Notes: generated by a model not told the origin, from the letters alone. DNA of 64,000 nucleotides from an uncultured Candidatus Saccharibacteria bacterium (GCA_964644035.1 CAZXUH010000001.1:393093-457092), one strand, 5' to 3'. Positions 2,195 through 51,482 are shown, counted from the first letter of the stretch. Made by a program: numbers and translations.

Positions 2195-5100
2195 CTACGG
2201 AGTAGGTTCAGTTACCGGTGGTTCTTCTACTGGAGGAGTTTCCTGCTCAGATCCAGAGTCTGCTGGTGTATCCTCGGAAGGTGTTTCATCTGCCGAAGTA
2301 TCTTCTGGCGGCGGTTCATCACTCGGAGTTTCATCCTCTACAGGTGGAGTGCTTGAAGCATTGCCATCATCTGGTGGTGGTTCATCGCCGCCTCCATTAC
2401 CTGGATTTGATGGTGGGGGTGTGCTTCCACCAGTCTGATTGAGCAATGCTCGCAACTGGTCTTTGTTGATACATACATCATCAAGACAGAGTTCGCTTGT
2501 CTGAACCTTTGTAAAGACACCGAGTGTAGCCTGGATTCTATCGAAGATGCTTACTGAAGAGAGCATTGCAGATGTTGAGGCAATCAACTGTTCAAGCGTC
2601 GTCACCTTCATATCGAGTTCTTGTATACCTTGGACGAGATATGGAGCGAAGCTTGAGTATGCGAGAGATTTATATCCATCAGGATTGGTATTCACAAGAT
2701 CTGGGAATACTGCTTCTACTTCCTGAGCAATGAAACCTGGGTGTCTTTCTGCAGCATCATTTTCAGCAAGCCAGTTGAATGATACCGATCGAAGATTTCT
2801 TAGTTTCTCAAGACTTGATGATGTTGAGAGTGTTGCTATATTTTTCTTCAAACGTTGATCGGATGTACATGAGAGCGCTGAGCTTGTAGGATCGACGTCG
2901 CAGGTACCGTTGGTATTTTGGAATCGAGCGATGACACCAGTTGTTGAGGCATTACCTACCGACAACATGTATGCCGGTGTCGATGTACCAATACCGACAA
3001 AACCATTTGGCGCAACTTCGAGAACCGTCTCGTTAGAAGATGATGAAATTCGGAATGTACTATTAGCTCCAGGTATACCAGTAATATGCAATCGTGCCAA
3101 AGGACTTGTTGTACCAATACCAATGTTACCATCAGCATTGACTCTCAAGAGTGTAGCTCCGCTCGACGAAGCAACATCAAAAATAATTTTGGTTGGTCGT
3201 GTAGAAGTGCCTCGTACAGAGAACGTTGCCCCTGGGGTTGTTGAACCAATCGAAACAGCACCGTTTGAGATTGTAAGTACTGCTCCAAGGTATCCACCAA
3301 GCGCAGCTGTCATTCGCTGGTTGTAGCGTAATTCTCCATTAATAACTTCAAGAGAAGAACAACTTCGACCACCATGCTGACAAGTAATTGAGGTAATAAT
3401 ACCATTTGAATCGTACGTTGGGTCTGATGCCATGTTTTGTACTACCCCCGATGCATCGGATATTATGTCCATAGTATAGCCTCCGTGGAATAGGAAGCTT
3501 GAGGTGTTATTAAAACCAAGTGCTCGATATGAGTTGCCACTAGCATCAGCGTTATTTCTTTCAATCGTTAGTGCTGCACCTTTGAACGGTGTGGATGTTC
3601 CTATTGCCACTTGACCTGTAGAAAGAACTCTCATGAGAGTACCTGATGGCTTGCCTGGCGCATGATTAGTCGATGAAGATATTTCAAATAATGGTGTTGC
3701 ACCAGCTGCACCCGTAATTTGGAGACGTGCGATAGGTGTAGTTGTTCCAATACCGACATTATTCATGCCGGTTATAGTAAGATGACCTGAGCTGTTTATT
3801 ACAAAATCAGTATCAACAACCCCAGGGTAGGTCATTCTTAATTTATTATTCGTACCATATATCTGAAGTGTTCCTGGTGCAGCAGTTGTGTTATTTCCCG
3901 TCGTATTGATAATAATTCCATTGTTGGTGTGTATACCGCCGTTTACATCGAGTTTTACAAGAGGACTTGTCGTACCAATACCCACATTACCGGCTTGATT
4001 AATTTCAAGAAGGCTTACGTTGGTAGATGAAGAAATTCTAAATGGATTAGTGCCGCCAATACCCCTGACCTGGAGAGATGTCGCGGGACTAGATGTACCT
4101 ACTCCAACAAGTCCTCCTGAAGGATTAAGGCTCAAAGTCTTAGCTGTACTTGCACCATCTGTCACGTCAATTTGAAAATGTTGTACTCCACCTGGAGTTT
4201 GAATGGCAAAATCAGCCTGCAAGTTATTGACCTGACCAGTACGTTCAATACGCATTGTGGCCAATCCTCCTGAATCATTGATAGTTAAGATTTTTGCTGG
4301 ATTTGAATTACCAATACCTACATAGCCATTCTGAAGTATCTCAAACATACTTGAGTTTGTTGAAGAAGAAACTCTGAATGGACTTGAGCCAGCAGATCCT
4401 GTGACCTGGAACTTGGTCAAAGGTGTTGTTGTTCCGACTCCAACCTTGCCAGTACCCAATATAGTAAATATTTCATTTCCTGCTGGTGCATCCATAAATG
4501 AATACCTGTTGTTTGCAGAAGTGTAGAGATTGAATCTAAACTGACCGCTTTGAGCACCAAGACCCATAGTTGAGGTTCCATCGTCATAAATTGCCAATTT
4601 TGTATTTGCAGTATCAGAGCCGAGAGATACTTTGGTTGTTGGATTTGCAACTCCGACTCCAAAGTTTCCGTTTTGCAAAAGCTGAAGCATTACTGTATTT
4701 GTTGATGAAGCGATTCTAAATGGATTGGTACCTGCACTTCCTGTAACCTGAAGTTTTGCCGCAGGAGTAGTTGTACCAATACCAACCAATGTATCTTCAT
4801 TGAGAGTCATCACGTTGTTATTTCTAACAAAGAATGAAGCCGTGTCTGTGCTTGCTGCCGAGACCTGCATTGAGAATCGTTCAGTACCACCTGAGTAGAT
4901 GGCGAAACTGTCAGTATTGTCGTTAGGATTTTCAATCGAGAGATTTGCAGTACCGTTTGTTATTCCGACACCCACGTTACCATTTGAATTTATTCTAAAT
5001 ATAGAATTATTTGTTGAAGATGCGACTTCAAAGAGTGGCGTTGTAGGCGCAGAACTAATTCCCTTTACGTTGAGCTGTGCAACAGGCGTAGTTGTACCGA

Positions 5101-8100
5101 TACCTACCCTACCTCCCAATGCTGCGAGAAGAACATTTGCATACTCTACACCAGCTTTTAGACCAGGATTGATTGTAACGTTCCCAGCTGTTCCAGAAGT
5201 TCCTGCATCACCAGCAGTAATCGTAACTGCTCCACCTGTACCAGTACTACCGGCTGAGCCAGCAGTGATACTTAGACTTCCACCTACCGTACTAGCAGCA
5301 CCTGAAGCAGAACCAGCCGCCAATACGAGATTTCCACCAAATGAGTTCGAACCAGTACCTGCACCCGATCGAATAGTAATGACACCACCACCTGTACCAC
5401 CATTACCACCTTCTCCACCAATAATAGTGACCCCTCCACCAGCATCTGTTCCCGATCCACCCAACACTCTGAGAGCTTCAGGTGCATCAGAAGAAGAAAC
5501 ATCAGAAGCATTTAGTCCCTCTATAGAAAGAGTTGCGAGCGGAGTACTTGAACCAATACCTACCATACCATTTTGAAGAATCGAGAAGTATTCATTGCCA
5601 CCCGCTGAAGCTGCGTCGAAGATACCAAAACGATCGGGACCTGTGGCTGAGATCGACCATGTAGTTGTACCTACATTATATGTTCCAGCCCAGACCGAAT
5701 TCCATCGTGCACCTGTTGCTCCGAGATTGTATGCTGACATATTGCCGCTGTATGGTGCACTTGGAAGAATATCTCTCATCATCGATGTGCCAGCGACAGT
5801 AAGAAGACTTGTAGGTGTTGTTGTACCAATACCGACATTGCCCGTCATATAGTAAATATCATTTCCTGTCTGTGTCCATTTTGATAGACCAGGAATACCA
5901 AGTGAAGATGTTGATGTCCATACTGGAGCTGCAGTTGAACCTTGTGACAAAAGCACCTGACCAAGTGTACCAGCATTGTTATTGAAGAGCGTTGCACCTG
6001 ACTGATTAATTTCAAACATCTTCGTATTTGTTGAAGATGAAATGAGGAATGGGGTTACAGTTCCCGATCCAGTAACCTGAAGTCTAGAAATAGGTGTTGT
6101 TGTACCAATACCAACATTTCCAGCTGTAGGGTTGATGATCAAATTGCCTCCTGCAGAAACGAGATATGAGTACAGACCACTTACCCCCAAACGTATACCT
6201 CCACCAATTACACCAGTTCCCCAGTTGTTTGAATTAGTATTGAAACTTATTCGAGGATCTGTTGTCCAGCTGAATGTAGCTTGAGCATCAACACCAGAAC
6301 CTACATCAACCGTAAGATTTCCTTCAGCCACAGTTCCTATTTGCAATTCTGACGTTGGGATAGGTGTAGCAATTCCAACATGTCCATTCGCATTTATTCT
6401 AAATATTGATGCGCCAGTGGATGATGCAATATCTACAAGAGGTACTGTTGGAGCAGTCGATGAACCTCTGATTGCGAGCTGTCCGCTTGGTGTAGATGAT
6501 CCAATACCAAGTCGTCCTGAGAGATAGTTGTGATTTTCACCAACCATATACAAACCATAATTGACCTGTCCGCCAGTAGGATTGCCATAGTATGAGACAA
6601 CTGATGTAGGGCCGAAAATAAATGATACTCCAACTGGAGTTGATTTAACACCAATAAGAGCTCCTGATATATCATAATCACCACCTATGTCTATGATTGT
6701 TTTTGAACCCGCAATCGTAACAGATGAACCACCTGTTGTGAATGCAAGATCAGGATTTGAACTACTTGGATTAATAATGCCAACATTGCCAGTAACAGTA
6801 AGTTTTGAACTTGGATTGACTGTATTGATTCCCACATTGCCGTTTTGCAATATTTCAAGCAAACTTACATTTGTAGACGAAGCGATTCTGAATGGATTCG
6901 TTCCACCCACTCCTGTGACTTGGAATGTGGTCAGAGGTGTTGAAGTACCTACAGCAACTTTTCCTGTGTTGTAATAGATATCGGATCCATTGGTGATCCA
7001 TTGTGATGACGATGCAATATTTGCAAAACCAAGTGAAGATGTTGCTACCCATAGCGGTGCAGCAGTTGAACCTTGTGACAAGAGAACCTGGCCAAGAGTT
7101 CCTGCTGAATCATTAAATAATGTTGCGCCAGACTGATTAATCTCAAACATCTTCGTATTTGTTGAAGATGAAACAAGGAATGGTGATGAGCCACCTGCAC
7201 CTGTGATTTGCAGACGAGCAAGTGGGGATGTAGTGCCAAAACCTGAGTTTCCGCCAGTCAACATAGTCAATTTGACCGTAGCTGTTGGACCAATCATCAA
7301 AGAGCTAGCAACATCGTTGACGATAAAGTTACCAAATACGAGTGAGTTGGCTGCGGAAACCGTGTTGAACGAACCAACTGCTGTACCATAACCAACATTG
7401 ATCGTGTTGGAATTACCGATTGCAGTTGAGTATCCATCGATTGGACCGCTTCTACCATTTACAATATTGAAACTTCCGAGTGCCGCGTTGTATATACCAC
7501 CTCCGACATTGTTACTACCTCCGATTGCGATGCTATTACCAAGCGTTGATGTGGCACTATTGTATTGACCGATAATGATTGATTCTGGGCCGCTCGCAAC
7601 TTGGTTGTGTGCTGTTCTTCTGCTCTGAATATCAATTGATCGTGCACCACGTGCCGCACCGCTGGTATCTCCCATAATAATCGCTCCACTTGATCCAGGA
7701 TGACTTACTGAGAGTGCGCCGAATACTGTTGTTGTTCCAACAACAGAAAATATTGATGCTGGAGATGATGTACCCACACCAACACTACCCGAACTATTCA
7801 AGACGGACAGGACAGGACTGTCAGCACTGCCGTTTGACGTACTGTCACCAATAAATACACTACTTGCGCCGTCGGGTTGGATATACAAATCTGCCCAAGC
7901 ATTAAGAGCGGCACTATGTCCTCCAAGCCATGCTTGAGAATTGTATTCGCCCATCAAAAATGCAACATTGTCTCCGCCGGCTACAATTCTTCCTCTCCAT
8001 GAGGCAGTCGATGCGCCTGTACCGCGTACATAGAGTTTTGCACCGCCATTTGCCGAAGGAATATCGTTGGAACCAATTCCAACATTACCGTTTTGCTGAA

Positions 8101-11100
8101 CTTCAAACAAAACAGTATTCGTTGACGAAGCGATTCTGAATGGATTCGTTCCACCCACTCCTGTGACCTGGAGTGTTGTGAGGGGTGTTGAAGTTCCTAC
8201 TCCTACTTTGCCTGCAGTGTATGAAAGATCATTGACTGTTTTTGTCCAGTAGTTGATCGAGGCTGGGAGTGTTGTTGAACCCAAGATATAGTTCGATACA
8301 CGTTGATCTGTGTAATAAAGATTTGAACCTTCTGCAACATTTGTTGTCAAAAAGCCAAGCGATGAAGTTGAAGTCCAGAGTGGAGCTGCAGTTGAACCTT
8401 GTGACAGAAGTACTTGGCCCAAGGTTCCATTTTGATTGTTGAATGCTACAGCGCCAGATTGATTGATTTCGAACATCTTCGTATGAGTCGATGAAGAAAC
8501 CAAGAATGGGTTGTTAGCACCTCCTCCTGTTATTTGCAATCGCGCAAGCGGAGTTGTTGTGCCGAGACCAACATTGCCACTGAAGTAAGCTCCCCCATCG
8601 ATAAAGCTTATATAAGAAGTGCCGATACTCGTTCCACTTGACTGTGTAGTCGAACTAAACACCAATTGTCCTGAGGCATTGGTATATGTGTAACCCTGCA
8701 ATGCATCACTAATCGATGTTCCATGGCGCCACTCGATCGCACCACCTCGTCGTGGAGGAGTAGGTCCTGCCGAAAGACCAGTGAGCACAATTTTTCCTCC
8801 ACCAGTCTGCCAATCACCAACATACAGATCTCTTCCCGCATTTACAAATACATCGCTATAAAATGTTGACGTACCTGATCCCAAAACATTGAGCACACCT
8901 TCAGCTGATATATTTCCTGCGAAGTAACCATTACCAGCAACTGAAAGTTTTTCAATTGGTGATGAACTTCCAATACCGAAGTTACCGTTTTGCAAAAGTT
9001 GGAGCATTACCGCATTTGTCGAAGATGACACTCTAAATGGATTCGTGCCCCCTACTCCTGTGACCTGGAACGTGGTCAAAGGCGTTGAAGTACCTACAGC
9101 AACTTTTCCAGTGTTGTAGTAGATATCAGATCCGTTGGTAATCCACTGTGATGAAGATGCAACGCTCGCAAATCCAAGCGAAGAGGTTGCTACCCATTGA
9201 GGCGCTGCAGTCGAACCAAATGATCGGAGAATAAATCCTGATGTTCCGGCATCGTTGTTGAAGAGTACAGCACCTGATTGATTGATTTCAAACATCTTCG
9301 TATTTGTTGAAGAAGAGATGAGGAAAGGACTTGCTGTGCCCGCACCTGTTACCTGAAGTCGAGCGATAGGTGTCGTGGTACTCAATCCAATATTTCCAGT
9401 ACTCAAATCACCAAAAAGCGCATTGCCTATGTTTAAGAAATTGGAATCAGAAGCTGAGCGAGCAAGTACTGAACCGATAAGTATGTTATTCGCACCTGTC
9501 GTTGAGGTTGTACCAACCCGATAACCGAGCATAATGTTATTTGATCCAGATGTAAGTGCTCCGCCTGACTGATAACCCACAAGCGTATTGGCAGAATTTC
9601 CTGTACCACTGCCCTGACCTGACAAATAACCAATTGCTACGTTCGCAGAACCTCCGTTGTTTTGGCTTCCAGCGTGGTTACCAATGTAGACGTTTACCAA
9701 TCCACCAGCATTTGAAGATCCTGCACCAGTACCAAGAAATACGTTGTTGCTACCTGTACTGCCACTACCAGCCGAATTACCTAAGAAGAGGTTGTTGCCT
9801 CCCGAAACGTTACCTGTACCAGCATTCGATCCGAGGAAGATATTGTCCGAGCCACCAACATTGGAGAATCCAGACTGATTTCCAACAAAAATGTTGTCAT
9901 TACCGCTTGTATTTGAAAATCCAGACTGATTTCCAACAAAGAAGTTATATGCTCCGCTTACTCCAGCAGCAACAGGTGTTGCACCTCCCAAAAACAAGTT
10001 GCCGGTCGTTGTTGCCAATCCAAAGAGCTGTCCGCCTGAGTAATAACTCGTGCTATCAGTGATACCAGCTACCGTAAGTGCTGCCCATGGAGTGGTTGTA
10101 CCAACACCCACCTTTCCTGTCGCACGATAGACATTACCCGATCCAAGAGTCCAATAGTTAATCGAAGCAGGAAGTGTTGTTGAACCAAGTACATAATCAG
10201 ACACCCTTTGGTTTGTGTAATAAAGATTTGTTCCTTCTGCTACGTTTGTTGTGAGAAAACCAAGTGTTGAAGTAGAAGTCCAGACTGGTGCAGCTGTTGA
10301 ACCTTGCGACAAGAGAACCTGTCCGAGTGTTCCGTTTTGATTGTTGAATGCTACTGCACCCGACTGATTGATTTCAAACATCTTCACATTTGTCGAAGAT
10401 GAGATGAGGAATGGGGATGAGGCTCCAGCACCAGAAACATGTAATCGAGCTATTGGTGACGAAGTACCAATCCCAACTAGACCATTTCCAGTTATTGTCA
10501 TAAGTTCAGTAGCGCCTGAGCTAAAGAACGAAAATGCTTTGCCAAACGCTGTACCCGATGGCTGTGATGTACCTGAGAATAAATCAACACCGTAATTACC
10601 ATTGAGTTGGAAAACATTTACCTGTGCAAAATCTGATGGTCTGCGGTACTTTATAGGATTGTTGTAATCAAGAACGATTGAGCCATTTGCAATATCGAGT
10701 TTCTGTTGGGGGGTTGTTGTACCGATACCAACATTGCCTTGGACAATCAATCCATTCGTAGGAGGTGTCTGGTTGTAATATCCTGTACCAATTGCCGCAT
10801 ATCCATTAACACCAAGTAATGTTCCAACATATATTCCGCTATTGGTATCACCAGCAACACCAAGCTGCAATTTTGCACGAGATGCACCATCTCCAGTCAC
10901 CGCATCGAGCGTTGGCAATGAACCTGCACCACCGATCACCATACGTGCGAAGTTGAAGCTTGCATTTCCAGCACCATCGGGATCAGCGAACCAGATTTGT
11001 TTGTTGTTTACCGCATTGTATCCGAGTGAGAACAAGAAACCGCTACCGCTACTTACTCCGCTGAGTGAGCTGCCGGTAAATGCAATACCACGAGTAGAAG

Positions 11101-14100
11101 TTGCTCCAGTTGCTGATTGAGCAACAGTAAAGTTCGCAGCGGGAGTTGATGTGCCGACTCCGATATTCCCATTGTTCAAAATAGTGAAGAGTGACGTTCC
11201 GGTTGAAGATGAAACGTTGAATGGATTGACTCCACCTGTTCCTTGAAGATTGAATGTATACGATGACGATGATGCATTGATACCAACAACCGATCCATTC
11301 TCTCGGAGAATAGAATCTGTAAATGCGCTACCTGTCCATCGTGGCATGAAGCCCGATGTGAGAGAGGCGGTGATTGCTGATGAAGTAAAGCCAAGTGAAG
11401 ATGTTGATGTCCAAACAGGAGCTGCTGTTGAACCTTGTGACAAGAGGACCTGACCCAATGTTCCAGCCTGATTATTAAAGAGGGCTGCACCTGATCTATT
11501 GATTTCAAACATCTTCGCATTTGTTGAAGATGAAATAAGGAAAGGACTTGCTGTACCTCCACCTGTTAGCTGAAGTTTTGCAATAGGTGTAGTTGTACCA
11601 ATACCGATATTTCCTGAAGAATTAATTGTCATATGAACAACACCAATACCCGCTCCATCTCCAGTCATAAACTGTAGATCATTAAATGTGCTATCACCAG
11701 CAACAGTACCAATTACAAGTGCGTTGTTTTGTGCTCCTGTAACGACGTCTCCAGCAGAAGTTGTAAGTGCTGAGCCAACAAAACCAAAGTACCCTGTGGT
11801 GAGAGAACCATCCTGGAGCAAGGAGATTCCAGGGTTGTCATTCTCATCGTTATTATCAGTATCAGAATCAATTACAAATAAACCGTCGCCTGCTATACCA
11901 CCACTAACATGAAGACGACCGCTTGGAGACATAGTGCCGATACCGACATTTCCGTTTTGCAAAATCTCAAACAAACTTGCATTTGTCGATGAAGAAACTC
12001 TGAAAGGATTGGTACCACCTGTTCCCCTTACTTGAAAAGTATTGAGCGGTGTTGATGTTCCTACACCAACTTTTCCTGCAGTGTATGAAAGATCATTAAC
12101 TGTTTTTGTCCAGTAGTTGATTGAAGCAGGAAGTGTTGTTGAGCCCAAGATATAGTTCGATACACGTTGGTCTGTGTAATACAAGTTTGAACCTTCGGCG
12201 ACGTTTGTTGTGAAGAATCCGAGAGAAGATGTTGAAGTCCATAGAGGTGCTGCAGTAGAACCTTGTGAAAGTAGTACTTGGCCAAGTGTTCCGTTTTGAT
12301 TGTTGAATGCTACTGCACCTGACTGATTGATTTCGAACATCTTGGTATTTGTCGAAGATGAGACGAGGAATGGATTTGATCCTCCAACTCCTGTTACCTG
12401 CAATCGCGCAAGCGGAGTAGTTGTACCTACACCCAGATTTCCAGTTGATGAGATAGTGATCTTTGCAGAATCACTTGAACCAATCTGAATACTATTTGCA
12501 ATTGAGTTGTTGATGTTTTGTCCAATAATTGTCGCATCTGCTGCCGACACAATGTTGTTGTAACCAAAAATGAGTCCGTTACTTCCGCTTGAAGTATTTG
12601 CATTACCATAAAGTACTGAACCTCCGGCTTCTGCTAGGTTATCCCTACCGATAAGTACAGCATCAGACGAAGAAGCAATGTTACCTCTTCCGATCAATGT
12701 ACTATCGGCAGAAAAAGCATTTGCGCTGTTTGAGATACCAACAATAAATACATCTGCTGCCTCGTTAAGGTTCGATGATCCAAAAATAGATCCACCTGAA
12801 CCATTATTACTATTGCCCAGACCAAATGTAACAGCATTCGCTTTAGTCGAACTATTCGAGAGTCCAACTACAAACTGCTCAGTTTCAACACCTCCCCCCG
12901 TCAAAGCATTGTCACGACCAAAGGATGCACATTGTTCGCAATCCACTGAGTTTGCAAAACCAATTGCAATCGTTTGAACTCTGGACGCCTGGTTGTCGGC
13001 ACCGAAAGCTATTGCATTAACTCCGCTGGCTACCCATGTAGGATCGCCATGCGAAGATTGAATATCGATAGAGCTCGTTCCGCGCGCATTACCGGAAGTG
13101 TCTCCAATCACCACCGCATTTGTAATTGGATACTTCATTGAGAGAGCTCCGTAAATGCTTGTTGTGCCAACCACATACAACGGTGTTGCTGGCGTCGATG
13201 TACCAATACCAACATTACCTGTATTGAAGTAAATGTTAGCGCCGTTATTGATCCATTGTGACGAAGTAGCTGTACCTCCAATACCAAGTGATGAAGTTGC
13301 GACCCAGATAGGCGCAGCTGTTGAACCTTGAGACAAAAGCACTTGACCAAGCGTTCCAGCTTGGTTGTTGAAGAGCGCTGCGCCCGATTGATTAATCTCG
13401 AACATTTTCGCATTTGTTGAAGATGCAATGAGGAACGGACTTGCTCCACCAGCACCCGTGATCTGAAGTCGAGCAATAGGTGTCGATGTACCAATACCCA
13501 ATCGATCGTTTGTATCATCCCAAATAAAATTGGCTGCATCGCTTGAAAGATAACCGTTGGTCGATGCAAATGGAATGATGCCAGAACTAAACGCCGTAGC
13601 GCTGCTGTTTTGAAGCAAAATATTTCTATCGGTGTTGGCTGGTGAGAAGTAAAGCTGCGTTCCGTCGTATTCGACTGCTCCAGCTTCAGCCGATGTGAGG
13701 TTGGTACCAGGGCTGAACTTGAGAGGTGCCGTGCTTGCAGATGCCGTACCAGTTGCAAGATGAAGCAAAGCGCTAGGTGTTGTAACACTGCCTCCCAAAA
13801 ACAACTTACCGTTGAGTTTGCTGCTCAATCGGTCGGTCAAATTCAATGCAATAGTGCCATTGCCATCATAGAGATTCATTGCACCACCGTCGACATGGAT
13901 AAACGATGAACCATTTTGAGAGCGGAATGAGTATGAGTACACACCAATGTTTGGAACAATGCGAGCCTGACCCCCGGCACCAGTGAAGAGGGCGATACCG
14001 TCATCAGCAACGCTGAAACGCTCTACATCAGCACTGTTGAATGTTGCAAAATGCTTATCAGAACCACTACCGGTACTGCGAACAGTCAGACGATGCGTCG

Positions 14101-14704
14101 GTGTGGATGTACCAACGCCAACATTGCCGCTTGAAGTGATCGAAAATACTGAGCTTGTGCTTGCACCAAAGAATTCTGCAACCTTGCCAGCACCAGTTTG
14201 GATGATGCTCATAAACGTCGAAGCACTTGAGGTGCTGTTGCTCTGATCGTTTCTGAAAAATGCACTTCCCGAAACACCGCCAAGTGTTCCCGCATCTTTT
14301 GCAATCATTGCTGCAGGCACTGCACCGAGAATTTTTCTTGGTGTCATTTCACTATCCGCTTCGATCGTCACACCAAGATACAACACCTGATTGAAATCAA
14401 TACTCGTCAACGAAGTTGTTGAACCGAGCATGATGCTGAAGAGTCCGTCGGTTACTTGTACGGTGTCCGACTCTGTCCAGATTGCAACGCCACCTGTTGG
14501 AACTGTGTAGAGTTTGAAAACGATATCGTAATCACCGTTGGTGACTGCAATGTTTGCCGGAGTGGTGAGACGACCTTGATAATTGATTTGAGGATTGAAT
14601 GCAGCTTGTGCAACTGGCATTTCAAAAAATCCGACGAAAGGAATTGCGAGTGATGCAACGAGAACGAGGACTGACACTGGGATGTACAATAGTTTTTTTA
14701 TCAT
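2195..14704 (-). CDS. Giant (4169 aa) secreted, fibre-like surface protein. It has an N-terminal signal/TM, a tail-fibre-like N-terminal domain, more than 8 repeated ~50-aa modules (GIGTTTP..ARLQVTG..SPFLISSSTN.KMFEINQSGA), Gly/Asn-rich beta-helix-like repeats, a C-terminal intramolecular chaperone auto-processing (peptidase S74) domain, and a Pro/Glu/Thr/Asp-rich tail.
   Basis: Single uninterrupted ORF. N-terminus MIKKLLYIPVSVLVLVASLAIPFVGFF..AQA is signal-like. The C-terminal segment CTSDQRLKKNIATL..SFNWLAENDAAERHPGFIAQEVEAVFPDLV..DGYKSLAYSSFAPYLVQGIQEL matches the conserved S74 chaperone-of-endosialidase motif set (approx DNA 2575-2900). The final ~76 aa are PE/T-rich low complexity. Confidence 0.8.
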   Translation of the reverse strand: MIKKLLYIPVSVLVLVASLAIPFVGFFEMPVAQAAFNPQINYQGRLTTPANIAVTNGDYDIVFKLYTVPTGGVAIWTESDTVQVTDGLFSIMLGSTTSLTSIDFNQVLYLGVTIEADSEMTPRKILGAVPAAMIAKDAGTLGGVSGSAFFRNDQSNSTSSASTFMSIIQTGAGKVAEFFGASTSSVFSITSSGNVGVGTSTPTHRLTVRSTGSGSDKHFATFNSADVERFSVADDGIALFTGAGGQARIVPNIGVYSYSFRSQNGSSFIHVDGGAMNLYDGNGTIALNLTDRLSSKLNGKLFLGGSVTTPSALLHLATGTASASTAPLKFSPGTNLTSAEAGAVEYDGTQLYFSPANTDRNILLQNSSATAFSSGIIPFASTNGYLSSDAANFIWDDTNDRLGIGTSTPIARLQITGAGGASPFLIASSTNAKMFEINQSGAALFNNQAGTLGQVLLSQGSTAAPIWVATSSLGIGGTATSSQWINNGANIYFNTGNVGIGTSTPATPLYVVGTTSIYGALSMKYPITNAVVIGDTSGNARGTSSIDIQSSHGDPTWVASGVNAIAFGADNQASRVQTIAIGFANSVDCEQCASFGRDNALTGGGVETEQFVVGLSNSSTKANAVTFGLGNSNNGSGGSIFGSSNLNEAADVFIVGISNSANAFSADSTLIGRGNIASSSDAVLIGRDNLAEAGGSVLYGNANTSSGSNGLIFGYNNIVSAADATIIGQNINNSIANSIQIGSSDSAKITISSTGNLGVGTTTPLARLQVTGVGGSNPFLVSSSTNTKMFEINQSGAVAFNNQNGTLGQVLLSQGSTAAPLWTSTSSLGFFTTNVAEGSNLYYTDQRVSNYILGSTTLPASINYWTKTVNDLSYTAGKVGVGTSTPLNTFQVRGTGGTNPFRVSSSTNASLFEILQNGNVGIGTMSPSGRLHVSGGIAGDGLFVIDSDTDNNDENDNPGISLLQDGSLTTGYFGFVGSALTTSAGDVVTGAQNNALVIGTVAGDSTFNDLQFMTGDGAGIGVVHMTINSSGNIGIGTTTPIAKLQLTGGGTASPFLISSSTNAKMFEINRSGAALFNNQAGTLGQVLLSQGSTAAPVWTSTSSLGFTSSAITASLTSGFMPRWTGSAFTDSILRENGSVVGINASSSSYTFNLQGTGGVNPFNVSSSTGTSLFTILNNGNIGVGTSTPAANFTVAQSATGATSTRGIAFTGSSLSGVSSGSGFLFSLGYNAVNNKQIWFADPDGAGNASFNFARMVIGGAGSLPTLDAVTGDGASRAKLQLGVAGDTNSGIYVGTLLGVNGYAAIGTGYYNQTPPTNGLIVQGNVGIGTTTPQQKLDIANGSIVLDYNNPIKYRRPSDFAQVNVFQLNGNYGVDLFSGTSQPSGTAFGKAFSFFSSGATELMTITGNGLVGIGTSSPIARLHVSGAGASSPFLISSSTNVKMFEINQSGAVAFNNQNGTLGQVLLSQGSTAAPVWTSTSTLGFLTTNVAEGTNLYYTNQRVSDYVLGSTTLPASINYWTLGSGNVYRATGKVGVGTTTPWAALTVAGITDSTSYYSGGQLFGLATTTGNLFLGGATPVAAGVSGAYNFFVGNQSGFSNTSGNDNIFVGNQSGFSNVGGSDNIFLGSNAGTGNVSGGNNLFLGNSAGSGSTGSNNVFLGTGAGSSNAGGLVNVYIGNHAGSQNNGGSANVAIGYLSGQGSGTGNSANTLVGYQSGGALTSGSNNIMLGYRVGTTSTTGANNILIGSVLARSASDSNFLNIGNALFGDLSTGNIGLSTTTPIARLQVTGAGTASPFLISSSTNTKMFEINQSGAVLFNNDAGTSGFILRSFGSTAAPQWVATSSLGFASVASSSQWITNGSDIYYNTGKVAVGTSTPLTTFQVTGVGGTNPFRVSSSTNAVMLQLLQNGNFGIGSSSPIEKLSVAGNGYFAGNISAEGVLNVLGSGTSTFYSDVFVNAGRDLYVGDWQTGGGKIVLTGLSAGPTPPRRGGAIEWRHGTSISDALQGYTYTNASGQLVFSSTTQSSGTSIGTSYISFIDGGAYFSGNVGLGTTTPLARLQITGGGANNPFLVSSSTHTKMFEINQSGAVAFNNQNGTLGQVLLSQGSTAAPLWTSTSSLGFLTTNVAEGSNLYYTDQRVSNYILGSTTLPASINYWTKTVNDLSYTAGKVGVGTSTPLTTLQVTGVGGTNPFRIASSTNTVLFEVQQNGNVGIGSNDIPSANGGAKLYVRGTGASTASWRGRIVAGGDNVAFLMGEYNSQAWLGGHSAALNAWADLYIQPDGASSVFIGDSTSNGSADSPVLSVLNSSGSVGVGTSSPASIFSVVGTTTVFGALSVSHPGSSGAIIMGDTSGAARGARSIDIQSRRTAHNQVASGPESIIIGQYNSATSTLGNSIAIGGSNNVGGGIYNAALGSFNIVNGRSGPIDGYSTAIGNSNTINVGYGTAVGSFNTVSAANSLVFGNFIVNDVASSLMIGPTATVKLTMLTGGNSGFGTTSPLARLQITGAGGSSPFLVSSSTNTKMFEINQSGATLFNDSAGTLGQVLLSQGSTAAPLWVATSSLGFANIASSSQWITNGSDIYYNTGKVAVGTSTPLTTFQVTGVGGTNPFRIASSTNVSLLEILQNGNVGINTVNPSSKLTVTGNVGIINPSSSNPDLAFTTGGSSVTIAGSKTIIDIGGDYDISGALIGVKSTPVGVSFIFGPTSVVSYYGNPTGGQVNYGLYMVGENHNYLSGRLGIGSSTPSGQLAIRGSSTAPTVPLVDIASSTGASIFRINANGHVGIATPIPTSELQIGTVAEGNLTVDVGSGVDAQATFSWTTDPRISFNTNSNNWGTGVIGGGIRLGVSGLYSYLVSAGGNLIINPTAGNVGIGTTTPISRLQVTGSGTVTPFLISSSTNTKMFEINQSGATLFNNNAGTLGQVLLSQGSTAAPVWTSTSSLGIPGLSKWTQTGNDIYYMTGNVGIGTTTPTSLLTVAGTSMMRDILPSAPYSGNMSAYNLGATGARWNSVWAGTYNVGTTTWSISATGPDRFGIFDAASAGGNEYFSILQNGMVGIGSSTPLATLSIEGLNASDVSSSDAPEALRVLGGSGTDAGGGVTIIGGEGGNGGTGGGVITIRSGAGTGSNSFGGNLVLAAGSASGAASTVGGSLSITAGSAGSTGTGGAVTITAGDAGTSGTAGNVTINPGLKAGVEYANVLLAALGGRVGIGTTTPVAQLNVKGISSAPTTPLFEVASSTNNSIFRINSNGNVGVGITNGTANLSIENPNDNTDSFAIYSGGTERFSMQVSAASTDTASFFVRNNNVMTLNEDTLVGIGTTTPAAKLQVTGSAGTNPFRIASSTNTVMLQLLQNGNFGVGVANPTTKVSLGSDTANTKLAIYDDGTSTMGLGAQSGQFRFNLYTSANNRYSFMDAPAGNEIFTILGTGKVGVGTTTPLTKFQVTGSAGSSPFRVSSSTNSSMFEILQNGYVGIGNSNPAKILTINDSGGLATMRIERTGQVNNLQADFAIQTPGGVQHFQIDVTDGASTAKTLSLNPSGGLVGVGTSSPATSLQVRGIGGTNPFRISSSTNVSLLEINQAGNVGIGTTSPLVKLDVNGGIHTNNGIIINTTGNNTTAAPGTLQIYGTNNKLRMTYPGVVDTDFVINSSGHLTITGMNNVGIGTTTPIARLQITGAAGATPLFEISSSTNHAPGKPSGTLMRVLSTGQVAIGTSTPFKGAALTIERNNADASGNSYRALGFNNTSSFLFHGGYTMDIISDASGVVQNMASDPTYDSNGIITSITCQHGGRSCSSLEVINGELRYNQRMTAALGGYLGAVLTISNGAVSIGSTTPGATFSVRGTSTRPTKIIFDVASSSGATLLRVNADGNIGIGTTSPLARLHITGIPGANSTFRISSSSNETVLEVAPNGFVGIGTSTPAYMLSVGNASTTGVIARFQNTNGTCDVDPTSSALSCTSDQRLKKNIATLSTSSSLEKLRNLRSVSFNWLAENDAAERHPGFIAQEVEAVFPDLVNTNPDGYKSLAYSSFAPYLVQGIQELDMKVTTLEQLIASTSAMLSSVSIFDRIQATLGVFTKVQTSELCLDDVCINKDQLRALLNQTGGSTPPPSNPGNGGGDEPPPDDGNASSTPPVEDETPSDEPPPEDTSADETPSEDTPADSGSEQETPPVEEPPVTEPTP
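4300..13450 (-). repeat. Intragenic near-identical DNA repeats within the giant gene, with 0.8-1.3 kb spacing
   Basis: The motif ...ctgattgatttcaaacatcttcgtatttgttgaagatga.. recurs at ~6011, 7141, 8461, 9281, 10361, 11491, 12321 and 13381, with weaker copies at 4341, 4680, 6850, 8100, 8990, 11180 and 11960. A second motif, ccttgtgacaa(g/a)ag.acctg.cc.a..gttcc, precedes each copy. Confidence 0.8.
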
Positions 14705-15075
14705 TTTCCTATTTGTGCATCCTTGTCCAATAACGTGACTGTTTCTGTAAGACTCTTTGCGGGAGTTTTCAGTGCAACATTTGATGTTGTTGTCTCACCT
14801 GAAAAATAGAAAAAGGCGGATGCAAATCCGCCTACACAAAAGAGAAATACTGCAACCAAAAGTCCTCGACCATTTGCAAACAATGCTCTCCCGGCTGGCA
14901 CGTAGTGCTTGGTCATGAAATAAGATTTTACTTCCCGTTCACTGACAAACCAGTTGCGGCCTACCTTCTTACCTTTGACCTTTCCAGAACGAATAAGAGC
15001 CCCGATGTAATCGGAGTGATACCCTGAAATTTGGGCGGCTTGCTTAAGCGTGATGTAATCCTGAAATATGGCCAT
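14701..15075 (-). CDS. Membrane-tethered helix-turn-helix protein with an HTH_17/excisionase-type DNA-binding domain and one TM helix; stop codon overlaps the giant gene start (ATGA)
   Basis: ITLKQAAQISGYHSDYIGALIRSGKVKGKKVGRNWFVSEREVKSY fits the HTH_17 pattern (..IRsG.l....gr.wri..). A hydrophobic stretch LLVAVFLFCVGGFASAFFYF follows, then a 30-aa tail. The 4-nt overlap 14701-14704 is read directly from the coordinates. Confidence 0.6.
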   Translation of the reverse strand: MAIFQDYITLKQAAQISGYHSDYIGALIRSGKVKGKKVGRNWFVSEREVKSYFMTKHYVPAGRALFANGRGLLVAVFLFCVGGFASAFFYFSGETTTSNVALKTPAKSLTETVTLLDKDAQIGK

Positions 15076-15204: not shown

Positions 15205-16596
15205 TTAATAAAGTTTTTGAGTTTTTTCCCTTATGAAAATTCTGACGATTACGTAGATTCCGATGAACAAAATGATCAAGTAAATGAGCAAAAATAAACC
15301 AATGAAAAATATAATTTGTCTATTTTTTAGACTTCCCTGCCCGACAAGATTTGAGCTCGAAATAAACATACCTGGAACGTGCGTTTCGCTACCTCGACTC
15401 AAGAAAACAATGTCAAAAAATGAGTCTCCGGAGGTAAGTGAAGCAGGCACTACAACTTCAAGATATCCATCGCTATGTTTTCTGAAAAGAAATGTATTGA
15501 TGTTACCCTTTTCGATGATTCGAATGTATGACTGTTCTGTATTTTTTGGTATGACCGATTTTGGTACACGCACGATCACTGCTTGTTGATTGTTGATAGA
15601 AAAATTTTGTCGTGAACCAAAAATCCTCGCACCATTTTGAAAAAATAAAATCGATTCAGTTGCTGTGGTCGAAGTTGAAATAGTATTTCCGCCAAAAAGT
15701 GGAAGTGATCCAAAATTGTTTCCCGATGAATCGTAGAAAATAAAATCGGTGACCGCGCCGGAAGAATAATTTCCAAATCGATCTCGTGCAAACGCTGTAT
15801 AAAAATAATGCATGTTTGAAAATGCATTTGAATCGAGTGCTTGCTGTCCCCGACCTTCGTACACAAAATATCCTTCTTGAGGATCGCGCGGATAATATCT
15901 CGTACCGCGTCTGATACGAACAAAATCAAAATCTTCATCGCGAGGATTCTTCCACGTCAGCAAAATATTTCCTCCAAATGAAAGTTCAGCACGAAAATCA
16001 GTAATGTTCGAAGGTGGCGTACGATCAAACAATGATTTTGTTCTAAACGCATAGGTCACCTGCGCCGACTGACCAAAACCGTCCGATGCTCGAACTGTTA
16101 CGTAGTACAGCGTATCCGGCAAAAGGTTGGTCAGCAAAATATTGTGAATATTCCTCAGATCAGTTTCAGTAACATTGCCCGCCGAAGTATCTGGATCGGT
16201 ACCCCAGGAAACCGTGGACAAAGTCTTGGCTGGGGTCGTCCAACTCACTATGGCCGTCGTCGTAGAAGCCTCTATTTTGAAGTTTTCGAAGACAATTGGC
16301 CATTTGTACGTACCTCCAGGACCTGGTTCGGCGGGAGGTTGTGGTGCCACAGAAGGTGTGGTTGTGGGAGTCGGAGGGGTGGTAGTAGCAGTACAATCTG
16401 AAGGACAACTACTGACCGTTTCCCCTAAAAACAGTTCGCAAATCAGATTGTTATTACAGCCCTCAACCAAGAGCTCGATTACCGTCGAATCATCCGCTGT
16501 CGCGGCCTGTACCGAAGAATGTCCTATAGAAACATAAAGGACACAGACCGAAATTACCAGAAATAACCAGGCAAATGTCGTCTTTTTTGAAAGCAT
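15205..16596 (-). CDS. Secreted, membrane-anchored protein with an N-terminal signal, a Cys-rich segment, a Pro/Thr linker, two fibronectin-III-like domains and a C-terminal TM anchor
   Basis: Signal MLSKKTTFAWLFLVISVCVLYVSIG..VQA. Linker TTTPPTPTTTPSVAPQPPAEPGPG. FN3-like stretches (TAIVSWTTPAKTLSTVSWGTDP...LYYVTVRASD; ILLTWKNP..DFVRIRRGT..YFY). C-terminal IIFFIGLFLLIYLIILFIGIYVIV plus RIFIREK. Confidence 0.6.
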   Translation of the reverse strand: MLSKKTTFAWLFLVISVCVLYVSIGHSSVQAATADDSTVIELLVEGCNNNLICELFLGETVSSCPSDCTATTTPPTPTTTPSVAPQPPAEPGPGGTYKWPIVFENFKIEASTTTAIVSWTTPAKTLSTVSWGTDPDTSAGNVTETDLRNIHNILLTNLLPDTLYYVTVRASDGFGQSAQVTYAFRTKSLFDRTPPSNITDFRAELSFGGNILLTWKNPRDEDFDFVRIRRGTRYYPRDPQEGYFVYEGRGQQALDSNAFSNMHYFYTAFARDRFGNYSSGAVTDFIFYDSSGNNFGSLPLFGGNTISTSTTATESILFFQNGARIFGSRQNFSINNQQAVIVRVPKSVIPKNTEQSYIRIIEKGNINTFLFRKHSDGYLEVVVPASLTSGDSFFDIVFLSRGSETHVPGMFISSSNLVGQGSLKNRQIIFFIGLFLLIYLIILFIGIYVIVRIFIREKTQKLY

Positions 16597-16603
16597 GGTC
16601 GTA

Positions 16604-17359
16604 TTATAACGCTACTGCTGTTGCCGTGATAACTGCCGAATAAGCACCACTTTCTTGCATCTTTGACGGTCCTATTTCAGCTCTTACCTTGACGGTCGTG
16701 GTGGCGCCCGAAGGATGGTTGGAACCGGTCGATTGCGATATATTCTTGGTTGTTAGAGTAAAACCGTCCCAGCAAGCGTCTGCGGTGTCAGAGGAGCCTG
16801 TATTACACACAGAACTGTTATCTTTGAAGCGTGGAAGAATATCAGCTCCTTCTGGGCTAAATCCAAAGGCCGATGTAGTCGAAACTATAGCAAAAGTATA
16901 ATCAGGGTCAGCACTTGCCGGTGTGTAATCGTCAAAAGAGATTCCTCCGGAGGTTTGAAGTGCAGGATCAGTCGAGGCTTGGACCGAAAGCACGTAGCCA
17001 GCGCTATTGTCGGTCAATACATTCCAAGCGATAGAACCATTACTCGTACCTCCAATCAAGCCGTTGATATCAGCAAGCGCCACATCTGGTGGTGAGCTAA
17101 TCGAGATATACGACGTATACATCTGCTGATACCCAGCTTTCATGACATAGTTGGTGCTACTGGAAAGTCCTGTTGCTATCTCACCTACCGTATCTTCGAG
17201 ATTGAAACTGGTACTCGTCGAACGCCCTCCCCCGACATCAATAGCATCAAAATTGATTTTGTAATTGGTACTTTGCATTGCAGCAAAAGCCGAAACGAAA
17301 GACAGTGAGAGAATACCGATGGCAATGTACGCGCCCGCGCGCATGATTTTATTTATCAT
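16604..17359 (-). CDS. WxL-like secreted cell-surface protein (Csc-cluster-like, small subunit type)
   Basis: Signal peptide; Ser/Thr/Gly-rich beta-rich composition. The C-terminus SGAYSAVITATAVAL resembles the WxL C-terminal motif G.Y.GTLTWTL but lacks Trp. Start overlaps the upstream gene by 4 nt. Confidence 0.45.
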   Translation of the reverse strand: MINKIMRAGAYIAIGILSLSFVSAFAAMQSTNYKINFDAIDVGGGRSTSTSFNLEDTVGEIATGLSSSTNYVMKAGYQQMYTSYISISSPPDVALADINGLIGGTSNGSIAWNVLTDNSAGYVLSVQASTDPALQTSGGISFDDYTPASADPDYTFAIVSTTSAFGFSPEGADILPRFKDNSSVCNTGSSDTADACWDGFTLTTKNISQSTGSNHPSGATTTVKVRAEIGPSKMQESGAYSAVITATAVAL

Positions 17360-18360
17360 TGCTTGCGACGAAATTCAAATCTTGAAAGGAAGAAGTAAGA
17401 AATAAGTATAAGCAGGACAAGACCACCGCCAACAGCAAGAAGAATTTTCCACGGAAGAATCCAGAATGCCAGAACTTTGGTATCAATAATGTCACCGTAA
17501 CCTCGATTGAGTTCGAGAGTTGCCTTGTAACGTCCGATCCTGAAGCTATCATCTGCCCAATTTACATCTCGGTAACGCAATGAATCTGGAAGTGAGAAAT
17601 AAGCGTCAATCGGTAAAACTCCGATTTCACTACCAAACAGATTGCTAATCCTGATCACACCGTAGGGCGCCAAGTGCACACTACCTGTGTTGTTGAAAAG
17701 TATTTGGAATTTGTCAGGAGATGTTTCGTATATCCAATGTTTATCTGAAATACGAAAATCTTCCACAAAACCGCTTTCATTTACCGGACCGTTGACTCTG
17801 ACAAAAAACAAGACACCGACACGAGAAATAATCTGAGCACCACTAACCGAAGTACTACTGTCGTTCTGAGGCCCATTGGCGACAATTACCGACGAATAAT
17901 AGCCTCCCGGCAAGGCATTTGCTGGGATTTGTATGGTGATAGGAATAGTGATTCTATCCCCAAAATTAAGGGTAAAATCGGAAACTGCAGGCCGTAAAGA
18001 GTCCTTAAATGAATTAGGGCTTCTGTCATCGCCAAGAAGAACAACGGGATTTTGTTCTTCACGAGAACCGACGAAATCTTCGGTCGTAACCTTGAAATCC
18101 GTCTTCCTGTTTATACGACTGGTAACTGAAATATATTTGACGATTGTGTCGCCCGGATCAGCAAAAATTTCCATTTTGCCTGGTTCGAGAACGAAGTCAT
18201 TTTTGTCATCGACACTCATCGATGTGATCTGAGGTCTTTCGGAAGTCTGAGCAAATGTTGCCGCAGGAGCAAGTATGCACGACATCAATACGATTAAGAA
18301 TGCAATATTCTTAGTACGGCTTAGTCCGCAAGATCGTAGTATTGATTTCTTTTTCGGCAT
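17356..18360 (-). CDS. DUF916/DUF3324-like cell-surface protein with a C-terminal TM anchor (CscA-like)
   Basis: Signal peptide; N-terminal domain ..ITSMSVDDKNDFVLEPG..; C-terminal ..YKATLELNRGYG..VLAFWILPWKILLAVGGGLVLLILISYFF plus RRKQ. This is the architecture of DUF916-DUF3324 proteins in WxL loci. Confidence 0.5.
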   Translation of the reverse strand: MPKKKSILRSCGLSRTKNIAFLIVLMSCILAPAATFAQTSERPQITSMSVDDKNDFVLEPGKMEIFADPGDTIVKYISVTSRINRKTDFKVTTEDFVGSREEQNPVVLLGDDRSPNSFKDSLRPAVSDFTLNFGDRITIPITIQIPANALPGGYYSSVIVANGPQNDSSTSVSGAQIISRVGVLFFVRVNGPVNESGFVEDFRISDKHWIYETSPDKFQILFNNTGSVHLAPYGVIRISNLFGSEIGVLPIDAYFSLPDSLRYRDVNWADDSFRIGRYKATLELNRGYGDIIDTKVLAFWILPWKILLAVGGGLVLLILISYFFLSRFEFRRKQ

Positions 18361-18365: not shown

Positions 18366-19028
18366 TTAGATCGTTGTCGCTGTAGCCACGATGGTAGCCT
18401 TGTATGTTCCGGATGGAATATAGGAGTTATTCTGTTCTACCGCATAGCAGACCGTACTGTCAACACCCGAAGTTGTTGTTGTCGACGAGCGTGTAGCGAT
18501 TGTTACGTCCGATGTTGTGAAGCCTTTGTATTTGAGTGTAGTTGAAGTTGCGTGAGCGTTGGTAGTAGTGCTGCAGAGAGATCCTGTTCCCCATGTACCA
18601 GTTGGTACATCGGTACCGAAGGCTGAGTAGCCAAATTCGTATGTACCAAATGGAGTACTCCAAAATGCCGGTGCGCCAGTCTGGTCGTCACCAATAGTGT
18701 TGGTTGAGGATTGCATAGCAGGAGTAGAAGTAGCCTTGACTGCGAGGGTGTAGCCGAGGTTATTGTTTGTCTTAACATTCCAAGTCGTTGTCGCAACAGC
18801 ACTGTTTTGCGCGACACCGACTGCTGTACTCATGGTTGCATCAGCAGGGCTCGTGATCGAAATACCAGCGGTCACGTTGAGCGTGATAATGACCGTATCT
18901 GATGCCGAGGCCTGTGCTCCAGCGTACATCGGTTCGAGAGATGCGTACGTAACCAGTGCGCCGACGCTCAAGACCAAGTATGATGCAGCGAGCTTAAATA
19001 TTTTTTTCTTAATGTTCATGATGTACAA
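18366..19028 (-). CDS. WxL-like secreted cell-surface protein
   Basis: Signal MNIKKKIFKLAASYLVLSVGALVTYAS. TTTWNVKTNNNLGYTLAVKAT resembles the first W.L region. The C-terminal SGTYKATIVATATTI resembles the WxL terminal motif. It is the first gene of the 4-gene minus-strand operon. Confidence 0.45.
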   Translation of the reverse strand: MYIMNIKKKIFKLAASYLVLSVGALVTYASLEPMYAGAQASASDTVIITLNVTAGISITSPADATMSTAVGVAQNSAVATTTWNVKTNNNLGYTLAVKATSTPAMQSSTNTIGDDQTGAPAFWSTPFGTYEFGYSAFGTDVPTGTWGTGSLCSTTTNAHATSTTLKYKGFTTSDVTIATRSSTTTTSGVDSTVCYAVEQNNSYIPSGTYKATIVATATTI

Positions 19029-51481: not shown

Positions 51482-51482
51482 T

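Follow-up and report, generated by a model that had tools for sequence, protein, structure and literature searches.

The family of mosaic adhesive trimers (MATs) was defined on 21 fibres of Bdellovibrio, a bacterium in which MATs take part in recognising and handling prey (Caulton et al., 2024, PMC10769870; PDB 8ojn, 8onb and 8onc, as well as 8ond for Bd2133). These proteins share a signal peptide, a conserved beta-rich N-terminal domain of ~130 aa without a homologue in the PDB, a trimeric beta-helix with capping loops, the loop motif of which was published as V-G-G/N-pi-x-x-P-x-x-x-L, and a variable tip (PMC10769870). An S74 domain carrying the motif SDxxxK terminates 13 of the 21 MATs, and Bd3182 was shown to cleave itself at the Ser residue of this motif; the full-length model of Bd3182 is ~550 A long with ~761 mature residues, and the cleavage releases ~141 aa (PMC10769870). 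The N-terminal domain presumably binds some surface element, according to the authors, who found MATs of 417-1915 aa in Oligoflexia, the PVC group, Alpha- and Deltaproteobacteria, the FCB group and Omnitrophica, their list including no Patescibacteria (PMC10769870). Here we analyzed a 64,000-nt stretch of DNA (the window; all coordinates below refer to it) of an uncultured Candidatus Saccharibacteria bacterium (GCA_964644035.1 CAZXUH010000001.1:393093-457092), in which a gene on the minus strand (2195..14704) encodes a protein of 4169 aa. This gene most probably specifies a giant, S74-terminated surface fibre of the MAT type on a Patescibacteria chromosome.

The first-pass annotation of the window had regarded the protein as a cellular surface fibre built with the folding logic of phage fibres, and the reading is supported by the S74 domain, the Ser/Lys dyad, the fold of the C-terminus, the genomic context and an N-terminal domain without a match in the phage genomes searched, all of which are detailed below. 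On the other hand, the novelty implied in that annotation was overrated. The architecture is not new, as it is that of the S74 subgroup of MATs (PMC10769870), and close homologues in metagenome-assembled genomes (MAGs) of Patescibacteria, Bacteroidales and Omnitrophica are commonly named 'tail fiber domain-containing protein'. What goes beyond the description of MATs is the phylum, the size, the extended chaperone fragment and a conserved partner locus, the last being the most useful lead.

The fibre gene is a real open reading frame (ORF), as annotated. It starts with ATG, continues without interruption for 12.5 kb to a stop codon at 2195-2197, is the sole long ORF of its stretch and translates into a precursor of 421.8 kDa. 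The identical 4169-aa protein (P0305) was found in NCBI records on a 568,144-bp contig, of which the gene occupies 2.2%. The length of the ORF and a loop motif that recurs 29 times in the shaft, compared with a mean of 0.08 in 500 shuffles, exclude a chance origin. An assembly artefact was considered and rejected on the grounds of the 60-82% DNA identity of the internal repeats, the uninterrupted ORF and the existence of equally long homologues; with their DNA identity that low, the internal repeats are old duplications. Pfam recognized a single domain, PF13884 (Peptidase_S74), in the whole protein, and the NCBIfam search of the same protein returned no match. The eight cysteines form four close pairs (589/592, 3775/3782, 3935/3946 and 4073/4078), which are probable disulfides in an exported fibre. 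We also observed that the dnaE ORF, which enters from the left edge of the window on the plus strand, ends 6 nt from the fibre stop (2188-2195); the two genes are convergent, with virtually no room for terminators between them.

The C-terminal region carries the strongest evidence for the identity of the protein. The annotation had claimed a self-cleaving chaperone domain of the type known in endosialidases at DNA positions ~2575-2900, and the PF13884 profile matched aa 3948-4004 (2693-2863) inside that region with an E value of 2e-17 and a score of 63.6 bits against a cutoff of 22, covering positions 1-57 of the 58 in the model. The four motifs brought forward for that claim, namely SDQRLKKNI, SFNWLAEND, HPGFIAQEVEAVFPDLV and DGYKSLAYSS, are all present. 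When the profile match is combined with the structure model by AlphaFold 2 (AF2; all models in this study are single-chain) and the Foldseek search, the S74 intramolecular chaperone domain spans aa 3948-4062 (2519..2863). Its predicted autoproteolytic motif, S3948-D-Q-R-L-K3953 (2846..2863), contains both members of the Ser/Lys dyad, with S3948 as the putative nucleophile and K3953 as the putative base, and the predicted scissile bond lies between T3947 and S3948. HMMER aligned this motif to SDERLK of a phage tail fibre (8jov) and to SDRRIK of the distal subunit of a long tail fibre (6f45). Ser and Asp are invariant in an alignment of 62 sequences, in which Lys is conserved at >=90%, and the pattern SDxxxK was found in 153 of the 167 S74-bearing homologues that constitute our C-terminal comparison set.

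The AF2 model of aa 3840-4169 (mean pLDDT 79) consists, in this order, of beta-helix turns, the S74 core (pLDDT 89-97), helices, a hairpin, a further helix and a disordered tail. In the Foldseek search with this model, the top match was the ICA domain of MyRF (7dc3; E 3.6e-5, TM-score on the target 0.62-0.67), followed by the Bdellovibrio fibres Bd2133, Bd3182, Bd1334 and Bd2439 and by the ICD of the endosialidase endoNF (3gw6; E 1.2e-3). The PDB sequence search with the C-terminal 400 aa added phage fibre chaperones and MyRF. Thus, the C-terminus is folded in the model like the solved chaperones, and the S74 domain lies C-terminal to a segment matching the beta-helices of MATs.

The annotation had counted about 125 further residues behind the chaperone domain, and this statement stood only in part. 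The last 76 aa are acidic and Pro-rich as described, but about a third of the residues in question, up to aa ~4062, belong to the chaperone itself as a long helix (4016-4050) and a short one (4053-4062) in the AF2 model. What is genuinely additional is a two-Cys hairpin with a helix (aa ~4071-4091) and the disordered tail. The former is located in an extension of the chaperone fragment at aa 4063-4093 (2426..2518), which AF2 modelled with a pLDDT of ~90 as two strands (4071-4074 and 4077-4080) around LC4073LDDVC4078I and a helix (4081-4091; KDQLRALLNQ); the motif T..LC..(G/D)..C[VI]T..QL..LL is kept in the closest homologues. The low-complexity tail rich in Pro, Thr and Ser (aa 4094-4169, 2198..2425) comprises 28% P and 28% D plus E, lacks K, R and H altogether, has a pI of 4.05, and was modelled as disordered with a pLDDT of 45-56. 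No sortase motif, transmembrane (TM) helix, wall-binding domain or other anchor signal was found at the very C-terminus of the fibre (...VTEPTP). Our best guess, made with low confidence, is that the tail serves as a solubilising spacer for the chaperone prior to the cleavage. As a separate observation, the C3935/C3946 pair brackets the segment ahead of the predicted cleavage site (GTC...LSC, followed by TSD) and is kept in relatives.

At the opposite end, an AXA site read from the sequence delimits a signal peptide at aa 1-34 (MIKKLLYIPVSVLVLVASLAIPFVGFFEMPVAQA, followed by A; 14603..14704). The site is located 4-5 residues ahead of the INYQG motif, and a site of the same type (AQA followed by A) was kept in the relatives inspected. 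We thus infer Sec-type signal-peptide cleavage after AQA. The mature protein would begin with a beta-sandwich domain (henceforth the N-domain) at aa 35-~140 (INYQGRL...DGLFSIMLG...EMTPRKILGAVPAA; 14285..14602), which was delimited by a profile search and AF2, the latter with a pLDDT above 90, and which we presume to be the cell-proximal anchor of the fibre. The suggestion that this region represents a family of fibre N-termini was borne out on a large scale. In a collection of 1.84 billion sequences, in which the counts refer to cluster representatives, the N-domain profile matched 82,710 representatives at E<=1e-3 and 39,847 at E<=1e-10. The domain is nearly always N-terminal, in proteins ranging from a few hundred to 4749 aa. 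No homologue of the N-domain was found in the PDB, and tblastn against 50,697 phage genomes (E<=1e-3) returned no match. A pattern-based scan of IMG/VR, able to reach close relatives only, likewise detected no relative of the N-domain, and the best Foldseek match in BFVD (E 4e-3) was a generic Ig-like fold. We noticed five proteins of a different build (P0278, P0279, P0282, P0283 and P0285), in which the N-domain is present in three or four copies or lies far from the N-terminus, unlike the fibre with its one N-domain.

The region between the N-domain and the predicted cleavage site (aa 141-3947, 2864..14284) is assigned to the fibre shaft on the basis of motif counts, repeated modules and similarity to PDB entries. 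It is rich in Gly, Ser, Thr, Ala and Asn. The loop motif counted above, G-[IVLF]-[GN]-[TSI]-x(2-3)-P-x3-[LF], occurs for the last time at aa 3904, after which only the C3935/C3946 pair precedes the predicted cleavage site. Eight full modules of ~75-83 aa start at aa 403, 758, 1034, 1411, 1773, 2046, 2488 and 2865, being spaced by 270-440 aa with varied segments rich in Gly, Asn and Ser in between. The modules have their counterpart in repeats of the DNA, among which family D1 with eight copies of 231 nt is 70-82% identical. The PDB sequence search with the whole protein hit only two entries, both of Bdellovibrio fibres, namely Bd2133 (8ond, E 5e-6) and Bd3182 (8ojn, E 0.007), and HMMER aligned GNIGIGTTSPLARLHI of the shaft with GNLGLGTAAPTSALHV of Bd2133. 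Among the phage protein families, the fibre matched the tail-fibre families phrog_9942 (E 7e-38) and phrog_18345 (E 3e-32).

Altogether, the protein resembles MATs in its signal peptide, beta-rich N-domain, shaft with capping loops, C-terminal S74 domain with SDxxxK and chromosomal location. Furthermore, its relatives terminate in either S74 or non-S74 tips, mirroring the split of MATs into S74 and NS74 members. There are four differences as well. The fibre is 4169 aa long as compared with ~1000 aa, that is, 2-4 times the listed MATs, of which the longest has 1915 aa. The organism is a monoderm-type ultrasmall member of Patescibacteria, a phylum absent from the list of MATs. The fragment to be released is 222 aa with a Cys hairpin-helix and a 76-aa tail, compared with ~141 aa in Bd3182. 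Finally, the fibre gene resides in a conserved cluster together with the genes for an HTH_17-TM protein, a WxLIP-like protein and an Fn3-TM protein. In the literature we searched, no paper linking MATs or S74 fibres to Patescibacteria was found.

The chaperones of phage fibres (endoNF of phage K1F, 3gw6; pb1 of phage T5; 6f45; 8jov) share PF13884, the spacing of Ser and Lys, the C-terminal position and a matching fold with the protein in question. Yet, the latter is cellular and Sec-exported, starts with a beta-sandwich without a match in the phage genomes searched, possesses a shaft that is an order of magnitude longer than those of phage fibres, and has its chaperone extended C-terminally. 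MyRF, which ranked first in the structural search with the C-terminal model, is another non-viral protein in which an S74 module trimerises and cleaves. However, MyRF is a eukaryotic membrane-bound transcription factor, and its cleavage frees a DNA-binding domain, whereas the helix-turn-helix (HTH) domain at the present locus is in a separate protein (rarely fused to the fibre) and at its N-terminus, membrane-anchored; the S74 cleavage would not free it.

We surveyed the loci of the best 80 of 312 N-domain relatives in a data set of one genome per species. The scan used the closer set of N-domain sequences (A3), the diverse alignment (A2) being too variable; this choice skews the 80 loci toward Patescibacteria and places Bdellovibrio out of reach. 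All of the 80 belong to Patescibacteria and are labelled as Paceibacterota, Parcubacteria, Kaiser-, Taylor-, Nomura-, Zambryskii- and Vogelbacteria and similar groups, with a maximum identity of 63%. This places the source of the window in Patescibacteria, probably in Paceibacterota, with a genome that does not serve as a species representative in the data set. The complete ORFs with an N-domain in Patescibacteria genomes range from 482 to 3429 aa, and several others are longer than 3500 aa, exceeding the 10-kb flank; giant relatives of 4749, 4020 and at least 3985 aa are known. The homologue searches returned targets up to ~1.75 times the query in length (577 aa for a 330-aa query and 349 aa for a 200-aa query), which seems to stem from the search tool, and the giants were visible solely through the representative search and the genome loci. 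Proteins of ~480 aa that were found in full length by the C-terminal search also possess the N-domain (E 1e-20 to 1e-23). Thus, the layout of an N-domain, a shaft and an S74 domain is widespread. The tips vary among the relatives: S74 terminates the proteins at L003 (3429 aa), L038 and L054 and is missing at L075 (3404 aa), L032 and L050, and 29 of 134 N-domain representatives carry it. Some genomes have more than one fibre gene, and two of the loci (L005 and L032) are from a single MAG.

The 167 S74-bearing homologues can be divided into two classes by what follows the catalytic Ser. Seventy-four of them have fewer than 150 aa after this residue, of ordinary composition, and none of the 74 has the two-Cys motif. 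The remaining 93 comprise the 'long' class, to which the 222-aa fragment of the fibre belongs; the two-Cys motif was found in 47 of them, and P, E, D, S, T and G account for 63% of their last 60 residues on average. In every Patescibacteria genome locus that allowed the Ser to be located, 205-413 aa follow this residue, so that the extended tail is a lineage feature and the standard form in Patescibacteria. The impression that it was peculiar to this gene is thereby corrected. Proteins ending directly after the helix were found in Bacteroidales and Omnitrophica, together with one example from Parcubacteria (P0120). Among the homologues in Patescibacteria, the tail is conserved in composition, not in sequence.

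Databases mostly hold pieces of such fibres because repetitive giant genes fragment short-read assemblies. Separately, we noted that many contigs end after a few hundred bases of the fibre gene (L004, L010, L012, L019, L041, L043, L074 and others, and also L082), and that the Logan contigs of the same organism, which carry GroEL and g463, break inside the fibre gene.

Immediately upstream, five genes on the strand of the fibre gene follow one another closely, neighbours overlapping by 4 nt or being separated by 5-7 nt, except for a single gap of 129 nt; the order of transcription is g220, g334, g251, g463, the HTH_17-TM gene and the fibre gene. The HTH_17-TM gene (14701..15075) encodes a protein of 124 aa, which comprises a Pfam HTH_17 domain (E 8e-6) and one TM segment, and its stop overlaps the fibre ATG by 4 nt. 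The product of g463 (15205..16596) has a signal peptide, a Cys-rich linker that is also rich in Pro and Thr, domains related to Fn3 and to the N-terminal domain of purple acid phosphatase (PF00041 and PF16656), and a C-terminal TM helix. The products of g251 (16604..17359) and g220 (18366..19028) are small secreted Ser/Thr-rich proteins that are paralogous to each other (alignment A6), and g220, the first gene of the cluster, lies just downstream of a tRNA-Thr gene. Between the two paralogues, g334 (17356..18360) encodes a signal peptide, an ectodomain of two domains and a C-terminal TM helix, and is probably related to WxLIP (DUF916) according to a profile of its orthologues (A5). No promoter-like sites in the cluster were commoner than in shuffled sequences. 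As an observation on its own, the 129-nt gap between g463 and the HTH_17-TM gene contains a perfect palindrome with a 12-bp stem (AGAAATCTCGAG-TTA-CTCGAGATTTCT; 15091-15117) and a T-run on the plus strand, which could act as a terminator or an attenuator or be bound by a protein.

Homologues of the cluster genes recur next to the fibre gene on its upstream side, with order and strand conserved. Among the 80 loci, those of g463 and g251 were found in 43 each, those of g334 in 32, those of g220 in 27 and those of the HTH protein in 49. An HTH-TM ORF lies on the same strand and <=2.5 kb upstream of the N-domain in 30 of 77 loci (~15 of these ORFs abut or overlap the fibre ORF), the loci beyond the window including L008, L054, L032, L033, L039, L046 and L053. 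In each of the 73 HTH_17 ORFs of the 80 loci, the HTH is placed at the extreme N-terminus and is followed by one TM segment. Fusions were detected for two of the cluster proteins. The HTH-TM protein is fused directly to the fibre N-domain in locus L047 and protein P0216. For g463, in-frame fusions were read in L027 (8383-14386), L034 (5088-8817) and L073 (8761-10780), in the order of the g463 homologue, a TM helix, a short basic loop, the fibre signal peptide and the N-domain; such a product would be split by signal peptidase. In five additional loci (L018, L044, L067, L072 and L077), a match to g463 and the N-domain are in one stop-free ORF. The synteny and the fusions argue that the upstream membrane proteins may work with the N-terminus of the fibre. 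The presence of a membrane-anchored HTH_17 protein beside a surface fibre suggests a putative ToxR-like regulator.

WxL clusters are not known to be linked to S74 fibres, Fn3-TM proteins or membrane HTH proteins. In Firmicutes, WxL clusters typically comprise one WxLIP (DUF916-DUF3324-TM, with two Ig-like domains) and two WxL proteins, and their function is only partly understood (Hassan et al., 2023, PMC10599100). The present cluster resembles these in that g334 has the layout of WxLIP and is flanked by two small secreted paralogues. In addition, the profile of 15 g334 orthologues matched EfmWxLIP1 of E. faecium (9i25_C and 9i1y_A) over the first domain with an E value of 1.3e-6. By contrast, the four g334 orthologues that matched PF06030 (WxLIP_PGBD) scored 19-26.5 bits (E 7e-6 to 1e-3), below the cutoff of 27.3, and g334 of the window did not match this profile. 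Neither g220 nor g251 gave a match to the WxL domain, to Pfam or to the PDB, and a dual W-x-L motif is not conserved in their alignment; the idea that they are WxL-domain proteins was not supported. Since the two small paralogues give no WxL match, the cluster is WxLIP-like and no more. We found no report of WxLIP-type proteins in Patescibacteria in the literature searched.

Based on the above, we propose the following course of events, in which trimerisation and cleavage are taken from endosialidase, phage T5 pb1 and Bd3182. The precursor would be exported by the Sec pathway, and the 34-aa signal peptide would be removed after AQA. Outside the cell, three S74 chaperone domains would associate and nucleate the intertwined trimeric beta-helical shaft. 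The chaperone would then cut itself off between T3947 and S3948 by the S3948/K3953 dyad, and an acidic fragment of 222 aa and 23.7 kDa, comprising the core, the helices, the putative disulfide hairpin and the Pro/Glu-rich tail, would be released. The predicted mature fibre (aa 35-3947, 394 kDa per chain) would measure ~0.28 um for its 3913 residues if the rise per residue is that of Bd3182, a single modelled protein. A length of ~0.28 um is about the diameter of the cells of the candidate phyla radiation. The N-terminal beta-sandwich would hold the fibre on the cell via the upstream membrane proteins, the likeliest partners on which it may dock being g463, the WxLIP-like g334 with the two secreted paralogues, and the membrane-tethered HTH_17 protein. 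The distal end newly exposed by the cleavage might bind a surface structure of a host or partner cell, by analogy with the fibres of Bdellovibrio.

Several points weigh against a MAT-type surface fibre. Trimerisation, cleavage, surface location and binding are all steps that we infer, the length estimate extrapolates from one modelled protein, and the role in host binding leans on analogy and on a presumed episymbiotic lifestyle. The N-domain is likened to that of MATs by description, both being beta-rich and without a PDB homologue, not by sequence. The cluster is missing in approximately half of the 80 loci (the fibre gene stands alone in 16, and only HTH genes accompany it in 15), and, for this reason, it cannot be obligatory for every fibre paralogue. 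The failure of g220 and g251 to match a WxL domain counts on the same side.

Other explanations were weighed as well. The S74 domain might be kept instead of being cut off, in which case the Pro/Glu-rich tail would act as a wall-spanning or ligand-binding brush and the C-terminus would be cell-proximal. Pro-rich acidic segments serve as wall-spanning spacers in Gram-positive surface proteins, and the conservation of the long fragment with the hairpin and the tail as a class in Patescibacteria suggests selection; in addition, the cleavage at this locus is predicted. Nevertheless, we consider a retained S74 domain unlikely, as the conserved Ser, Asp and Lys would be needless in a domain that does not cleave. 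Besides, the C-terminus has no anchor, the sequence of the tail is unconserved, and the end that is conserved and linked to partners is the N-terminus. It is quite unlikely that the protein is a structural, matrix or secreted fibre, contributing to a sheath, a biofilm or a kin tether, with the cluster being an unrelated wall complex. Such a role would accord with the failure to find a ligand-binding domain at the tip other than the last beta-helix turn, with the loci devoid of the cluster and with the partly understood function of WxL clusters. Still, MATs of the same build act in prey recognition by Bdellovibrio (PMC10769870), the swapping of tips among the relatives is typical of receptor-binding proteins, and the in-frame fusions of g463 and the HTH-TM protein to the fibre argue for a functional link to the cluster.

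The annotation had further stated that no phage structural, integrase or terminase genes are nearby, and the search of the whole 64 kb against Pfam and PHROGs agreed with this, as no capsid, terminase, portal, tail, integrase or lysis genes were found. The gene could nonetheless be read as a tail-fibre gene left over from a prophage, the upstream HTH_17 gene then serving as excisionase or regulator, given the matches of the S74 domain and of shaft segments to the two PHROG tail-fibre families, the HTH_17 fold of the excisionase type in the upstream protein and the tRNA-Thr gene at the upstream edge of the cluster. We regard a prophage remnant as very unlikely. Genes for phage structure, packaging, integration and lysis are absent from the window, which is uniform in GC content (0.40-0.47), the N-domain has neither a match in the phage genomes nor a close relative in IMG/VR, and the same gene order recurs in the genomes of dozens of Patescibacteria species. 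The fibre has a Sec signal peptide, a feature absent from virion proteins. The candidate excisionase is anchored in the membrane in 73 of 73 cases and was thus rejected as such; it is instead a membrane-anchored member of a conserved cellular cluster.

Apart from the fibre gene and the conserved surface cluster, the genes of the window are of the housekeeping type. They encode DnaE, EF-Ts, a release factor and the ribosomal proteins S2 and L25; fructose-bisphosphate aldolase, a split transketolase, ribulose-phosphate epimerase and GAPDH; both subunits of ribonucleotide reductase; and GroEL, a two-component system, DinB, GlmS and G6PD. There are two or three tRNA genes, including the tRNA-Thr gene at 19315-19390. 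The third one (41301-41374, minus strand), located beside a tRNA-Ser gene, was detected by Rfam with 44 bits and was not called by ARAGORN. On the plus strand, a 300-aa ORF at 51086-52385 contains domains II-IV only of phosphoglucomutase and is preceded by a 131-aa ORF on the same strand at a distance of 1 nt; it may be a split or frameshifted phosphoglucomutase gene.

We return to the fibre of the MAT type and its neighbours. Tentatively, and with considerable doubt, we consider that the fibre may be the outward arm of an undescribed, phylum-wide surface apparatus of Patescibacteria encoded by the six genes. If so, the membrane proteins would be the partners that hold the N-domain of MATs on the cell, fibres of 0.1-0.3 um with interchangeable tips would capture hosts, and the anchored HTH protein would couple the apparatus to transcription. 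The acidic tail of the chaperone would, in such an apparatus, adapt the folding to the outside of a wall-bearing monoderm envelope.

How the ultrasmall Patescibacteria, which depend on hosts, find and hold these is poorly understood, and their big surface proteins lack annotation for the most part. The abundance of the fibres is underestimated, as metagenome assemblies break at such long and repetitive genes, of which mostly pieces are recovered. With a fibre of the MAT type matured by S74, host attachment gains a concrete candidate that can be tested, and a family first recognised in predators reaches into the largest radiation of bacteria that is still uncultivated. The partner genes and the fusions also offer candidates for the ligand of the MAT N-domain, a question left by the study of Bdellovibrio.

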